A stretch of 64,000 bases of DNA from Candidatus Multivorans sp. (GTDB taxonomy: Bacteria; Acidobacteriota; Thermoanaerobaculia; Multivoradales; Multivoraceae): contig OZ245033.1 of assembly GCA_965224025.1 (NCBI GenBank), forward strand, positions 2,656,001 to 2,720,000, written 5' to 3'. Positions 23,992 through 32,236 of the stretch are shown here, in pieces. Below the pieces are notes generated by a model, which saw only the letters and a list, made by a program, of their open reading frames with translations, did not search any database and was not told where the DNA came from. The translations under genes and the position numbers were made by a program. How positions within the stretch are numbered: the first letter of the stretch is position 1; each line of letters begins with the position of its first letter.

Positions 23992-25245
23992 TCATGCGAC
24001 CTGGGCATGGCATCGCTTGTTGGGGTCGAAGAGAGTTCGGTCTCGGAGCATGGCGCAGGCGACGCCGAGGAGTCGGTCGACGAGTTGTCTGATGGCGCGT
24101 CCGTGCGTCTTGCCTTCGGCTTTCATGGCGTCGTACTTGGCGCGGCTGATCGGGTCGTGCTGGATGGCGACTCGTCCCCAGTGATAGACGGCGTCGCTGA
24201 GGTGTTCGTTGGCGGCGAGTCGTCGCATGACGATGAGCTTCTTGCCGGACTTGACGGTCACCGGCGCCACTCCGCAGAGGCAACGCAGTGCCTCGTGGTC
24301 TCTGCGGCCCAGGCTTTGATCGGCCTCGGAGAGCAGGGTGGCGAGGCCGACCTTGCCGAGTCCGGGCAGCGACCTGAGGATGGCGGCGTCGCTCGGCTTA
24401 GGGGAGTCGTCGTCGTTTTCCCGTTGGGCCGGGGCCTCGAGTGCGCGGGTCATCCGCTCCAGCCGCTTGTCGGCGTCGGCGAGTTGGCGGCAGACGGTGT
24501 CGAGCACCGGCCGGAGGAGTCCTATGTGTTCGACGGCGGCCTTAACGGTGTCCGGGGAAACGGCGATCGGCTCGGCCCGCAGTTGATCGCGCAGTTGGGC
24601 GGAGGTCAGGCGCCGGATGCGGTGTTCCTTGAGCAGTTTGGCGAGCGTGGCTTCGCGCAGCCGTCGAGCCTTGCCGGGGGTCGGCGCCAGTCGCCACAAG
24701 GCCAGCGCGAAGGGCGCCGACACCTCGTTCTTGACCACGGCGAGAAACTGCGGGTAGTAGCGCCAGAGCTGGTCGCGGACCTGGTTCTCCAGGCGGTTCT
24801 TCTGGCCGACCAACTGCTTGCGGCCGCGGGACACCTCGCGCAGCATGACGATGGCGGCATCGGATGGTTGCACGCGGTTCAGGCACTCGGGGTCGGTGCG
24901 AAGCGCGGCGGCGAGCACCCGTGCATCGCGGCGGTCATCCTTGGCGCCGGCGACGGAGAAGCGGTCCCTGAAGCGGTCGAGCTGCTTGGGGTTGATCGAA
25001 TGGACGGCGAAACCCCGCTCCAGGAGAGTCTCGACCACCGGTCCGTGCGGCACCTCGATGGCGACGCCGATCTCGTCCGGAGACGTCGGTCGGGTATGTC
25101 CAAGGAGCCAGTCGGCCATGGCGGCAAGTCCCTTGCCGCTGTGGTCGAACGCCCGCTCCCCCCTCACCTTGCCGTCCCGATCCAGCACACACACGTGGTG
25201 GGTCTCGGACCCCCAGTCCACGCCGGCGAACCACGTCCTGGTCAT
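23992..25245 (-). CDS. IS110 family recombinase/transposase
   Basis: DEDD motifs GVDWG, AIEVP, KDDRRDA; SLPGLG; GVAPVTVKSGK; start ATG 25245 after AGGAGG. Confidence 0.95.
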   Translation of the reverse strand: MTRTWFAGVDWGSETHHVCVLDRDGKVRGERAFDHSGKGLAAMADWLLGHTRPTSPDEIGVAIEVPHGPVVETLLERGFAVHSINPKQLDRFRDRFSVAGAKDDRRDARVLAAALRTDPECLNRVQPSDAAIVMLREVSRGRKQLVGQKNRLENQVRDQLWRYYPQFLAVVKNEVSAPFALALWRLAPTPGKARRLREATLAKLLKEHRIRRLTSAQLRDQLRAEPIAVSPDTVKAAVEHIGLLRPVLDTVCRQLADADKRLERMTRALEAPAQRENDDDSPKPSDAAILRSLPGLGKVGLATLLSEADQSLGRRDHEALRCLCGVAPVTVKSGKKLIVMRRLAANEHLSDAVYHWGRVAIQHDPISRAKYDAMKAEGKTHGRAIRQLVDRLLGVACAMLRDRTLFDPNKRCHAQVA

Positions 25246-29237: not shown

Positions 29238-29410
29238 GAGCGGGTCTCCTTCGGAGGATGTGTTGGTTGTCGTACCTGACTACGTAGAAGCGGCGGCGCG
29301 GTTGCGGTGCGTTCCCTAGGAGTGTCCGCAGCGTTGTCGCTGCGCTGTCGCGCAGGGAACAGGCAGCGAGTAGCCAACGTTACAGCGGCGTCGTGGGTTC
29401 ATAGAGTTGG

Positions 29411-29567
29411 CCGCGCTGGGCAGCGAGGCCGCGCAGGCACTGGTGTGTTGGCGCCCGACTAGGAGTTTGGCCCGGACCGTGATCGGCGCTCTGACGCTGG
29501 CGGCGCGGCTTGTGTCGCGACCCCGTATGCAAGATTGAGCTTTTCGCCGCGGTCTCTGCCCAGCGCG
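29411..29567 (+). ncRNA. Predicted bridge/seek-type guide RNA with a multibranch fold
   Basis: Outer stem cgcgctgggcag...cgcg / cgcgg...ctgcccagcgcg encloses four segments that match the junction flanks. Confidence 0.62.
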
Positions 29568-29600
29568 ACGATTGGATTCCACATCTACGGGAGGCAGGGG

Positions 29601-30920
29601 ATGGCAAAGCGGAAGGCGGAGCGTCTGGAAGTCGTTCACCCGGATTGCGCCGGTGTGGACGTAGGCAAGCGCAAGCACTACGTGGCGGTGGCCCCGTCGC
29701 GTTTCGAGCGGCCGGTGCGCAATTTCTCGTCGTTCACGGAGGACCTCGAGGCGATGGCCTCGTGGCTTCAGGAGTGCGGCGTGCGTGAGGTGGCGCTGGA
29801 GTCGACGGGGGTGTACTGGATTCCGGTGTTCGAGGTGCTGGACCGGGCGGGGTTCGAGGTGCATCTGGTGAATCCTCGGGCGACCAAGCAGGTGAGTGGC
29901 CGCAAGAGTGACGTTCTGGACTGCCAGTGGATCCGGCAGTTGATGAGCTACGGGCTCCTGCGCGGTGCGTTTCGCGCGCCGGACGAGTTGTGTCCGCTGC
30001 GTTCGTACACGCGGCAGCGCGCCCAGTTGGTCCGCGACCGCAGCCGCGCGGTGCAGCACATCCAGAAGGCTCTGGTGCAGATGAACGTGCAGTTGGACAA
30101 CGTGCTGAGCGACATCATGGGCAAGACCGGCCAGTTGATCGTGCGCGCGATCGTCGCCGGCGAGCGCGACGGCGCGGCGCTGGCCCGTCACCGGGACGGT
30201 CGCTGCAAGGCTGGTCCGGCTGTGATCGCGGCGAGTTTGCAAGGCAACTGGCGAGACGAGCACCTGTTCGCTCTGGGCCAGGCGCTGGCCCGCTACGACA
30301 TGCTGCAAGGCCAGATCGAGATGTGCGAGAAGCGCATCGACGCCGAGCTCGACGGTCTGGCCCAAGACGGCGTCGAGGACGCGCCGCCGCCCGGTTCGAA
30401 GGCGCGCGAGCGCGCCCTGCGGAAGCGGCTGCATCGCATGCTCGGCGTGGACCTGGTCGCCATTCCGACGGTCGGCGTCGAAACCGCGCTGACCTTCGCC
30501 GCTGAGATCGGCCCGGACCTGTCCCGGTTTCCCTCGCAGGGCAACTTCTGCTCGTGGCTGTGTCTGGCTCCACCGACCAACATCAGCGGCGACAAACGGC
30601 TGAACGGCCCTCCCGTGAAGCAGACCAACCGGGTCGGCCAGGCGCTGCGCCAAGCCGCCACCACAGCCCGCAACAGCAAGACCGCCATCGGAGCCTCTCA
30701 CCGCCGGCGTCTCCAGCACATGGAGAAGGCGAAGGCCATCAAGGCCACCGCTCATCAACTCGGCCGACTGATCTACGCCATGCTGACCCACGGCGAAGAG
30801 TACGTCGAGCGCGACCTCGCCGAAATGGAGGCCGTCCGACGCGAACGACAAATCAGAAACCTGCAGCGTCAGGCCCGCCGCCTGAATCTGGCTCTCGTGC
30901 CGACCGAACATGCCGCCTGA
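29601..30920 (+). CDS. IS110 family recombinase/transposase
   Basis: AGVDVG, ALESTGVYW, RKSDVLDC, IPTVG, WLCLAP..NISG; ATG 29601 after GGAGG. Confidence 0.95.
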   Translation: MAKRKAERLEVVHPDCAGVDVGKRKHYVAVAPSRFERPVRNFSSFTEDLEAMASWLQECGVREVALESTGVYWIPVFEVLDRAGFEVHLVNPRATKQVSGRKSDVLDCQWIRQLMSYGLLRGAFRAPDELCPLRSYTRQRAQLVRDRSRAVQHIQKALVQMNVQLDNVLSDIMGKTGQLIVRAIVAGERDGAALARHRDGRCKAGPAVIAASLQGNWRDEHLFALGQALARYDMLQGQIEMCEKRIDAELDGLAQDGVEDAPPPGSKARERALRKRLHRMLGVDLVAIPTVGVETALTFAAEIGPDLSRFPSQGNFCSWLCLAPPTNISGDKRLNGPPVKQTNRVGQALRQAATTARNSKTAIGASHRRRLQHMEKAKAIKATAHQLGRLIYAMLTHGEEYVERDLAEMEAVRRERQIRNLQRQARRLNLALVPTEHAA

Positions 30921-31024
30921 ATCGCGCAACCTGCGCTGCCAACAAGGAACCCCTACCCGTTTGTTCCATGCAAGCGTGCGCGGCAGAACATGGGGTGCGC
31001 CGATTCTTCCTGCGGCGCACGCAG

Positions 31025-32236
31025 CTAGCTTGCCCACTTCCTGGCTGCGGCCAGGGCCTCTTCCGACGGTGGCAGAGTGGGCTTCAGGCGCGCGGTCACG
31101 TTGAAGGGCTCCGTGTCGATCTCGTCGAGGCCCTGCTCGCCGGCGAGGACGGCGCGTTTCCATTCCTGCTGCTGGTCGTCGCGTTCCTGGAACTCGGGCA
31201 TCACTTCGCGCGCGAACAGCTCCAGGCTGCTCTTGATGTCCTCGTGGGTGTTCTTGCCGGCCTGGTTCAGCAGGATGACCTGGTCGACGTGGGCCCGTTC
31301 GAGTTCCAGCAGGCGCTCGCGGATCGTGGCGGGTGAGCCGATCAGTTCGCTGCGCGAGCGCTTCCGGCCTTCGGGCGTCTGCTTCCACTCCTGGTAGCGC
31401 TCCCAGAAGTTGTTCGACCTGGGCTCGAACGGACCTTCCTTGTTGTAGAGCTGCAGGGCGAACTGGAAGAACGTCCAGCCGTCGGCCTTGTGTTGCGCCT
31501 CTTCGTCGGTGGGCGCGCACATGAAGCCGCCGACCACGGCGAGGTTCGGGTTCGTCTGGTAGTCGCAGAGCCTCTGCTGGTCATGGGCGAAGGTGTTGTA
31601 GTACGCGTTGACCCAGGCGCGGGCGGAGTCGAGGTCGACGAACTTGAAGCACAGCGCGCCCATGCCGCGATGCGCGGCGTAGCGGATCGTTTCGAGTTGC
31701 GAGCAGGCGACCCAGAGCGGCGGGTGGGGCCGCTGCAGCGGCTTCGGAATCACGTTGCGCAGCGGGAAGTCGAAGTAGTGGCCGTGATACTCCCAGCCCT
31801 CTTCCCAGAACATCGGCAGGCAGGCCTGGACGGCCTCCTCCCACACGATCCGCTTGTCGCGGAAACTGCGGCCGAAGGGGTGGAGTTCGGTGACGCTCGA
31901 GCCCTCGCCGAGCCCGAGTTCGACGCGGCCGTTCGAAACCAGGTCGAGGGTCGACACCCGCTCGGCGACGCGGGCCGGGTGGTTCGTCGTCAACTGGACG
32001 ATGCCGTGGCCGAGGCGGATGTTCGTCGTGCGCTGCGACGCCGCGGCGAGAAACACCTCGGGCGCCGAGCTGTGCGAGTACTCCTCCAGGAAGTGGTGCT
32101 CCACCTCCCAGGCGTAGTCGTAACCGAGCCGGTCCGCGAGTTCGATCTGCTCCAGGGAGTTCTGGAGCAGGCGGTGCTCCGAGTCCGGTCCCCAGGGCTT
32201 GGGCAACTGGTGCTCGTAGAAGATGCCGAATTTCAT
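31025..32236 (-). CDS. LLM-class flavin-dependent oxidoreductase
   Basis: MKFGIFYEHQLP, EVEHHFLEEYSHSSAPE, LDLVSNGRVELG, PKPLQRPHPPLWVA. Confidence 0.92.
   Translation of the reverse strand: MKFGIFYEHQLPKPWGPDSEHRLLQNSLEQIELADRLGYDYAWEVEHHFLEEYSHSSAPEVFLAAASQRTTNIRLGHGIVQLTTNHPARVAERVSTLDLVSNGRVELGLGEGSSVTELHPFGRSFRDKRIVWEEAVQACLPMFWEEGWEYHGHYFDFPLRNVIPKPLQRPHPPLWVACSQLETIRYAAHRGMGALCFKFVDLDSARAWVNAYYNTFAHDQQRLCDYQTNPNLAVVGGFMCAPTDEEAQHKADGWTFFQFALQLYNKEGPFEPRSNNFWERYQEWKQTPEGRKRSRSELIGSPATIRERLLELERAHVDQVILLNQAGKNTHEDIKSSLELFAREVMPEFQERDDQQQEWKRAVLAGEQGLDEIDTEPFNVTARLKPTLPPSEEALAAARKWAS

Follow-up and report, generated by a model that had tools for sequence, protein, structure and literature searches.

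The 278-nucleotide (nt) left end of an ISPpu9-like insertion sequence of the IS110 family in Candidatus Multivorans sp. (Acidobacteriota) very probably encodes a bridge RNA, in which two guide loops are arranged in tandem within one outer stem. The element lies at positions 29323-30974 of the stretch of DNA analysed here, henceforth the window, which comprises 64,000 nt (positions 2,656,001 to 2,720,000, forward strand, of contig OZ245033.1 in GenBank assembly GCA_965224025.1). The evidence lies in the boundaries and the target of the element, in helices that change on both strands among relatives, and in the covariation of three guides with the DNA that they would read. An earlier note on this DNA, generated by a model from the letters alone, had described the region as a guide RNA of the bridge or seek type with four guides in one multibranch loop. 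The type of RNA was recognized correctly, as guides do covary with the flank and with the end of the element, while the proposed architecture has to be replaced. The element and its site are made up as follows.

29316..29322, plus strand: left half of the target, CTAGG (left target) and core AG; identical in 14/14 copies; 21 empty sites.
29323..30974, plus strand: insertion sequence, including the right-hand AG; 14 identical copies with the same span.
29601..30920, plus strand: transposase/recombinase gene, 439 amino acids (aa); Pfam and NCBIfam matches.
30963..30974, plus strand: right end, with subterminal repeat GTTCC, left donor ATGCA and core AG.
30975..31024, plus strand: right half of the target repeat, CGTGCGC... 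to ...GCAGCTAG; empty paralog on contig C3, and contigs joining 29315 to 31025.

The element is inserted in a repeat, with AG as the core and at both junctions. All 14 genomic copies at 100% identity share this exact span (one further copy at 85% and fragments are also present), their left junction reads CTAGG-AG-TGTCC in every case, and their right junction is ...GTTCCATGCA+AG, reading ...GTTCC-ATGCA-AG, again in 14 of 14. Beyond the left junction the flanks are unrelated among the copies; on the right, 11 of 14 flanks match nnTGCGC. The genome also holds 21 element-free CTAGGAGnnTGCGC sites, one of which (on C3) is a near-identical paralog of the right flank of the copy in the window. Site-specific insertion, a short shared core and the lack of long terminal inverted repeats, all traits of the IS110 family, are therefore present in this element. 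The target ctagg-AG-cgtgc and the donor atgca-AG-tgtcc given in the earlier note are correct, and the boundaries do not map elsewhere, as the note had allowed they might. On the repeat itself, a separate observation comes from contigs in three runs of three studies (X1, X3 and X6; with flanks about 90-96% alike and hence from a relative), which join 29315 straight to 31025, with a CTAG at the join that fits both sides. The relative lacks the whole of 29316-31024, both the insertion sequence and the entire target repeat of approximately 55 base pairs (bp), so that the repeat, judging from these contigs, itself looks like an insertion flanked by CTAG.

The protein of 439 aa, as against about 326 aa for the IS621 recombinase, has an N-terminal DEDD/RuvC-like domain (Pfam DEDD_Tnp_IS110, PF01548, 1.1e-25) and a C-terminal Transposase_20 domain (PF02371, 2e-11), and it matches the NCBIfam family NF033542, 'IS110 family RNA-guided transposase', with 271 bits at a cut-off of 140. 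Among the Pseudomonas homologs fetched, the nearest (L055) shares 58% identity with it. The non-coding ends of the element measure 278 nt on the left and 54 nt on the right. A second, different type of IS110-family element lies at approximately 24751-25227 on the minus strand (DEDD_Tnp_IS110, about 119 bits) and has 13 copies in the genome, compared with the 14 of the element studied here.

Homologous loci were collected in two sets, namely 59 with 45-86% protein identity and, later, 22 more distant ones with 37-49%. Two alignments were used: A1 contains 31 distinct homologs and was analysed with RNAalifold and then by explicit pair counting, while A2 contains 51 distinct RNAs fitted to the structure model and thus favours that structure by construction. 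An unpublished genome (G179, locus L093) enters the A2 counts, the distant-clade diagonals and a tally of 16 in 18 given below, none of which hinges on L093 alone. To gauge chance matches, the sequence of the 278-nt left end was shuffled 20,000 times. Structural conservation covers 29410-29569, a part of the long left end that precedes the gene and is read on the gene's strand, and the RNA predicted from it has the following helices.

29410..29420, plus strand: 5' strand of the outer stem P1, pairing with 29559-69; both-side changes at 9/11 pairs in A1 and 11/11 in A2.
29427..29430, plus strand: 5' strand GGCC of helix H2, pairing with 29469-72 and closing the target loop; 100% of cells paired.
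29441..29457, plus strand: hairpin hX in the target loop; 97.3% of cells paired, compensatory changes at 2/6 pairs.
29475..29488, plus strand: 5' strand of helix H1, GACCG ugau CGGCG, pairing with 29545-54 and closing the donor loop.
29498..29525, plus strand: hairpin hY in the donor loop; compensatory changes at 9/12 pairs.

Taken as a whole, this structure is paired in 91.2% of the cells of A1, with both-side changes at 27 of its 43 pairs; none of 500 shuffles paired as well, and slid controls reached only 36-45%. The corresponding values in the model-fitted A2, with its 51 distinct rows, are 91.6% and 35 of 43. What matters most for the architecture are the two inner helices. H2 is found in the states GGCC/GGCC, UGCC/GGCA, AACC/GGUU and GACC/GGUC, with compensatory changes at 3 of 4 pairs in A2, and H1, which consists of 29475-79 and 29484-88 paired with 29545-54, shows such changes at 4/5 and 1/5 pairs of its two parts in A1, and at 5/5 and 5/5 in A2. 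The covariation of H1 and H2 gives two tandem loops inside the outer stem, and the predicted RNA is therefore one of two separate guide loops, not of a single loop. Each loop runs from a 5' arm through a hairpin to a left guide, for the left target in the first loop and for the left donor in the second, and the two are pseudo-symmetric: both left guides stand in the context CCCGn-[7-mer]-nnUG, and the first pair of hX and of hY is an invariant U-G, with GG/CC pairs next to it.

The arrangement put forward in the earlier note was a different one, namely a single multibranch loop enclosed by a stem of 20-22 bp and holding, in this order, a right-donor guide (29436-41), the left-target guide, a right-target guide (29494-98) and the left-donor guide. 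The outer half of that stem (29410-20/29559-69) is real and changes in a compensatory manner. Its inner half (29425-33/29548-56) competes with H1 and H2, which split the region in two, and it lies at the level of shuffled alignments: paired cells make up 67.0%, the shuffles average 66.9%, and 253 of the 500 shuffles equal or exceed the real value. Among the small hairpins said to separate the guides, two are supported (29441-57 and 29498-29525), whereas no hairpin occupies the stretch from ctaggag to acgct, which contributes a 3' strand to one long-range helix and a 5' strand to a second.

All four of the segments on which that proposal was built are present, ggcact at 29436-41, ctaggag at 29459-65, acgct at 29494-98 and atgcaag at 29527-33. 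Two of them recur among the three guides that we identify.

29431..29438, plus strand: predicted right-target guide GCGCAGG at 29431-37, with C29438 opposite the G of the core.
29459..29465, plus strand: left-target guide CUAGGAG, equal to left target and core, which would pair with the bottom strand.
29527..29533, plus strand: left-donor guide AUGCAAG, equal to the last 5 nt of the element and the core.

The left-target guide follows the insertion site closely. Its columns are concordant with the bottom strand in 28-29 of 29 cases (z between 4.8 and 6.7), and the 7-mer is found exactly at the left boundary of the element in 40 of the 51 distinct RNAs and with one mismatch in another 9, leaving 2 in which it was not found there, one of them at a contig edge. 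These 51 RNAs carry 25 distinct left-target 7-mers, and in every lineage among the fetched homologs the 7-mer equals the left flank plus AG (for instance ATGCAAG, CCAGGAG, ATGAAAG, ATGCGAG, ATTGTAG, GAGGGAG, ATTCTAG, ATTTTAG, AAATGAG, ATAGGAG and TTCTGAG). The left-donor guide behaves likewise towards the other end of the element: its variable columns are concordant in 26 of 26 cases, and the 7-mer, of which there are 15 distinct versions, lies exactly at the right end in 42 of the 51 RNAs, with two more besides. By chance, CTAGGAG appears in 1.7% of the shuffled left ends, ATGCAAG in 0.5%, and both together in 1 of 20,000. On the basis of this covariation with flank and element end, the assignment of 29459-65 and 29527-33 as left-target and left-donor guides is confirmed at the level of sequence comparison, and for these two 7-mers the earlier caveat that such short matches might be fortuitous can be set aside.

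One could ask whether the left end is merely a structured 5' untranslated region that regulates translation of the transposase, with the matches to the flanks being by-products of site-specific insertion. A structured 5' untranslated region that inhibits translation has indeed been described for ISPpu9 (PMC12288879; this and the other papers cited are drawn on through passages rather than whole texts). Regulation alone does not predict, however, that 25 left-target and 15 left-donor 7-mers should change together with flank and end, and the family is annotated as RNA-guided; what is more, the two roles can coexist. We regard a purely regulatory left end as very improbable.

Several side observations concern these two left guides. 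In one other genome (L032), one copy of the 13-copy relative sits directly behind the CTAGGAG that is the left-target guide of another copy, and in another genome (L074) a mini-element splits the RNA gene at the same place; in both, the RNA gene holds its own target half-site. At L021/L022, L040, L045 and L016 the left-target guide equals a left-donor guide (ATGCAAG or ATGAAAG), which implies that the right-end junction of their own kind is the target, and these relatives stand in tandem with full or mini elements. L045 has two RNA genes 1.9 kb apart, and L016, in the genome studied here, is an RNA gene with such identical guides and no transposase behind it. Finally, an element in a genome of the same genus (L081 in G061) encodes an identical protein and sits at another CTAGG|AG site, and its right end reads CTGCA-AG rather than ATGCA-AG, one mismatch to the presumed left-donor guide.

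The right-target guide is, as far as the alignments can tell, GCGCAGG at 29431-37, which lies just 5' of the ggcact of the earlier note. These seven bases precede the conserved CAN-U and are complementary to the top strand at +1..+7 to the right of the core. Over 26 distinct pairs of element and site, 117 of 182 cells on this diagonal pair, compared with a permutation mean of 0.51 (z = 4.4, 0/500 permutations as high), and no other offset is prominent. At the 14 sites in the genome itself, the successive guide positions pair in 9, 13, 12, 13, 13, 11 and 12 cases. Compensatory steps are seen as well: the close relatives L037 and L039 have GCAGG/CCTGC and GCACG/CGTGC, respectively, and position +3 is A/T in the element at 29323-30974 and G/C in the 13-copy relative (11/13 sites). 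The third base of the CAN linker (29440), compared with the base before the core in the 26 pairs, gives C-G in 10, A-T in 4, G-A in 5 and other combinations in 7, an association only. With this guide in place, the first loop has both target guides, left and right, and the second loop has the left-donor guide, and the predicted order is right-target, left-target, (conserved arm), left-donor. The earlier note was thus correct that the order is permuted with respect to IS621, although the order it gave (right-donor, left-target, right-target, left-donor) was not the right one.

The remaining two segments of the earlier note have fared differently from the 7-mers. In this copy, pairing is possible between GGCACU and AGTGTC, with one wobble, and between ACGCU and AGCGT. 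Yet ggcact consists of the last two bases of the right-target guide, the linker CAC and the first base of a hairpin; CA and U never change within it, whereas the start of the left end, which a right-donor guide should follow, varies (TGTCC, TACCC, TTCTC, CTGTC, CCCAC, GGTTC and others). In the register proposed, the pairing reaches z = 2.1, with 15/500 permutations as high, and a 6-mer able to pair with AGTGTC, wobble allowed, is found in 72% of shuffles and three times in the real left end (29436, 29485 and 29493). Similarly, acgct forms the last, conserved bases of the 5' arm in the donor loop. If it were the right-target guide, it would pair contiguously with AG and the flank in only 1 of the 14 copies that share an identical RNA, homologs give z = 1.2, and ACGCT is present in 22% of shuffles. 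The covariation across homologs that had been suggested as a check is therefore seen for ctaggag and atgcaag and not for ggcact and acgct, which are conserved and match at the level of chance. Considering also the helices described above, we find it very improbable that the four segments act as guides in a single multibranch loop, and we return to the two-loop RNA.

For the fourth half-site, the right donor, three further features are relevant.

29323..29360, plus strand: left-end box, with right-donor start TGTCC, two overlapping palindromes and GGAAC at 29356-60.
29466..29466, plus strand: nucleotide U, possibly handshake-like, which matches the base at the start of the element's left end; few independent changes.
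29489..29498, plus strand: 5' arm of the donor loop (CUCUGACGCU), the best candidate for a right-donor guide, in this element only.

Given its place as the 5' arm of the donor loop, 29489-98 is where one would expect a right-donor guide. The arm could thus be that guide, reading the core (CU with AG) and one to four bases beyond it, with the recombinase reading the rest through the subterminal repeat and the palindromes. In the element at 29323-30974, and only there, GACGCU can pair with AG and TGTC, including one wobble; the place of the arm mirrors that of the right-target guide in the other loop; and its last two bases are always [C/U]U, able to pair with AG. A 5-bp subterminal inverted repeat, moreover, covaries between the ends: GTTCC (30963-67) directly adjoins the left donor on its 5' side, GGAAC occupies +34..+38 in the left end, 33 nt inside it and beyond the two overlapping palindromes, and relatives have GTTTG/CAAAC, GTTAG/CTAAC or GTTTC/GAAAC in these places, with GTTCA/TGAAC, GTTCT/AGAAC and GTTAC/GTAAC as further states noted by eye. 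That said, the arm is conserved across relatives despite differing starts of the left end and shows no covariation with that start at any offset; in most relatives only the core and about one base can pair, and the closely related L040 and L041 have identical donor loops and different starts. The share ascribed to the protein is, for its part, conjectural. We consider this explanation a real possibility, if one that falls somewhat short of even chances. As to the GTTCC that the earlier note saw before both cores, it is a genuine covarying subterminal repeat at the right end, and before the left core it is present in only 1 of 14 copies.

The genome further contains 11 mini-elements of 54-62 nt, located at CTAGG|AG or CCAGG|AG (for example in the right flanks of L010 and L012), in which a start resembling the left end is followed by a palindrome, GGAAAC or GGGAAC, and then GTTCC-ATGCA-AG. 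Most of them begin with TCGAG and not TGTCC, while ATGCA-AG and the subterminal repeat are common to both kinds of element. This sharing of left donor, core and repeat by mini-elements with another start also fits a right-donor guide of few bases assisted by the protein. In appearance they are A'/B' modules of the ISPpu9 kind that lack cargo, and they were presumably mobilised in trans.

Two other signals near the right-donor side deserve mention. The base after the left-target guide (29466) is the same as the one that opens the left end in 25 of 29 cases, and in 16 of 18 in the distant clade, and it agrees with the base that opens the right flank in no more than 5 of 26; such a pattern is suggestive, in the aligned sequences, of a handshake-type base that would pair with the recombinant junction, though the number of independent changes is small. 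The last five bases of the donor-loop arm (GACGC; UUCAC in the distant clade) resemble, by eye, a motif of the left end 4 nt before the subterminal repeat. We do not take this resemblance as a signal, since its independent states are too few and no mechanism suggests itself.

A number of results weigh against the two-loop bridge RNA as proposed here, and they concern the fold, the statistics and the donor loop. The minimum-free-energy fold of the left end as a single sequence is no better than that of shuffles (z = 0.43), and no Rfam family was matched, the sole match being gntR-DTE on the minus strand with 20.3 bits against a gathering threshold of 63.6 (E = 0.88). Kinship among the sequences inflates the permutation statistics. 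The right-target diagonal is not significant in the distant clade (45/112, z = 1.2), and it is diluted by elements with a left-target guide ATGnnAG, whose targets are right ends of related elements and which lack complementarity to the right flank. Most notably, the search for a right-donor guide, performed on 26-28 distinct elements and 18 distant ones, gave no consistent diagonal when the 5' arm of either loop was compared at offsets -6..+4 (or -7..+3 for the distant clade), and nothing consistent in the sequence that adjoins each left guide on its two sides, on both strands. One distant-clade diagonal, at offset -7 (z = 3.1, 1/400), falls in a strand of helix H1 and was not trusted. Finally, in ISPpu9, mutating bases just inside the left AG is reported to disturb end recognition and to misdirect circle formation (PMC12288879), which indicates that this side of the left end matters in at least one relative.

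If the RNA does act as proposed, its outer stem (29410-20/29559-69) would hold the two guide loops in tandem. The target loop, closed by GGCC/GGCC at 29427-30/29469-72, would present the right-target guide, a hairpin and the left-target guide, and the donor loop, closed by 29475-88/29545-54, would present the conserved 5' arm, a hairpin and the left-donor guide AUGCAAG, which would read the right end of the element, ATGCA+AG. The recombinase would then synapse the circle junction ATGCA-AG-TGTCC with CTAGG-AG-nnTGCGC, and strands would be exchanged at AG. Here, the pairing of RNA with DNA would be that of IS621, and the chemistry would by analogy be the same. The pairing rule and the IS621 order were taken from the passages of PMC11208160 and PMC11208158 that describe them, in which, for either loop, the bottom strand is bound by the 5' arm and the top strand by the 3' arm, around a CT core.

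How does this RNA compare with the known ones? With the bridge RNA of IS621, as those passages (Durrant 2024, Hiraizumi 2024) present it, it shares an origin in the left end, ahead of the recombinase gene, the succession of target loop and donor loop, the build of each loop (stem, arm, hairpin, arm), a 2-nt core, pseudo-symmetric loops (here CCCGn-guide-nnUG), and one arm with the top-strand sequence including the core, with the other complementary to the top strand. It differs in that the arm order in the target loop is reversed, the arm complementary to the top strand being 5', in that the core on the RNA-sense strand is AG and not CT, in that one outer stem surrounds both loops, and in that covariation identifies no right-donor guide here. 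According to the relevant passages of Siddiquee 2024 (PMC11187229), recombinases have 315-330 aa in the branch of IS621, 330-350 aa in IS1111 and 395-455 aa in the IS110 subgroup proper; seekRNAs of the IS1111 type (ISEc11, ISPa11 and ISKpn4) lie downstream of the gene and have the complement of the top strand first, and the IS110-type ISEc21 has an IS621-like order. Our element resembles IS1111, so described, in having the top-strand complement 5' of the bottom-strand complement and in its subterminal inverted repeats, while its RNA is upstream of the gene and not downstream, its protein has 439 aa rather than 330-350, and its repeat is 5-6 bp and not 7-17 bp, with the left copy at +34..+38, 33 nt inside, and not beside the core.

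The closest description is that of ISPpu9, an element of the IS110 group from Pseudomonas putida. In the passages of Pares-Guillen 2025 (PMC12288879) used here, ISPpu9 has AG dinucleotides at both ends, where recombination takes place, and goes into extragenic repeats; its left end carries an 'A box' of 43 bp that contains an inverted repeat, its right end carries a short 'B box', and small modules between A' and B' boxes are mobilised by it. Likened by description, our element has the same AG at both ends, a repeat as target, a left box with inverted repeat and a short right box, and the non-autonomous A'/B' modules have their counterpart in the 11 mini-elements. A dissection of a bridge RNA of the ISPpu9 type was not found in the passages, as distinct from whole texts, of the literature searched. 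ISPpu10, as summarized in a preprint (10.64898/2026.03.19.712850), is likewise an IS110 element at an extragenic repeat with a two-loop bridge RNA, but it is described with a CT core, the pairing logic of IS621 and a target stem-loop 5' of the site. The reversed arm order is thus already known from IS1111 seekRNAs and the AG core from ISPpu9, and the element is best filed as an ISPpu9-like member of the IS110 type, having an upstream bridge RNA with the arm order of IS1111. The structural diversity of bridge RNAs has already been documented at a large scale, with 86 covariance models for 32,190 bridge RNAs, many of which deviate from IS621 (preprint 10.64898/2026.10.21.760802, again in part), and the clade of our element may be among those models or sets.

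The same data can also be viewed from the strand antisense to the RNA, on which the site would become [7 nt]-CT-[5 nt], with arms in the IS621 order and of IS621-like lengths. In such a case, the genes of the element would be inverted relative to the polarity of the crossover site. Extending this, the ISPpu9-like lineage with an AG core, an upstream RNA and a recombinase of about 440 aa might use the geometry of IS621 on the opposite strand, with only three of the four half-sites programmable by RNA and the left end read by the conserved arm together with the covarying 5-bp repeat, which palindromes would keep 33 nt away. We advance this only tentatively and think it rather unlikely as a whole; if true, it would make the lineage an intermediate between the IS110 and IS1111 groups.

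Bridge recombinases are under development as tools for programmable genome rearrangement, and the rules for their reprogramming depend on the positions of the guides. For such rules, the genome studied here offers a natural data set, with 14 identical copies, 21 empty sites and 11 mini-elements. The case itself is that of a bridge RNA encoded upstream, with an arm order so far reported for the downstream seekRNAs of IS1111, an AG core and only one clearly programmable arm in the donor loop. If confirmed, it would mean that arm order and location of the RNA are separable characters in the evolution of the family, and it may provide a natural system in which recognition of the donor needs fewer programmed bases.

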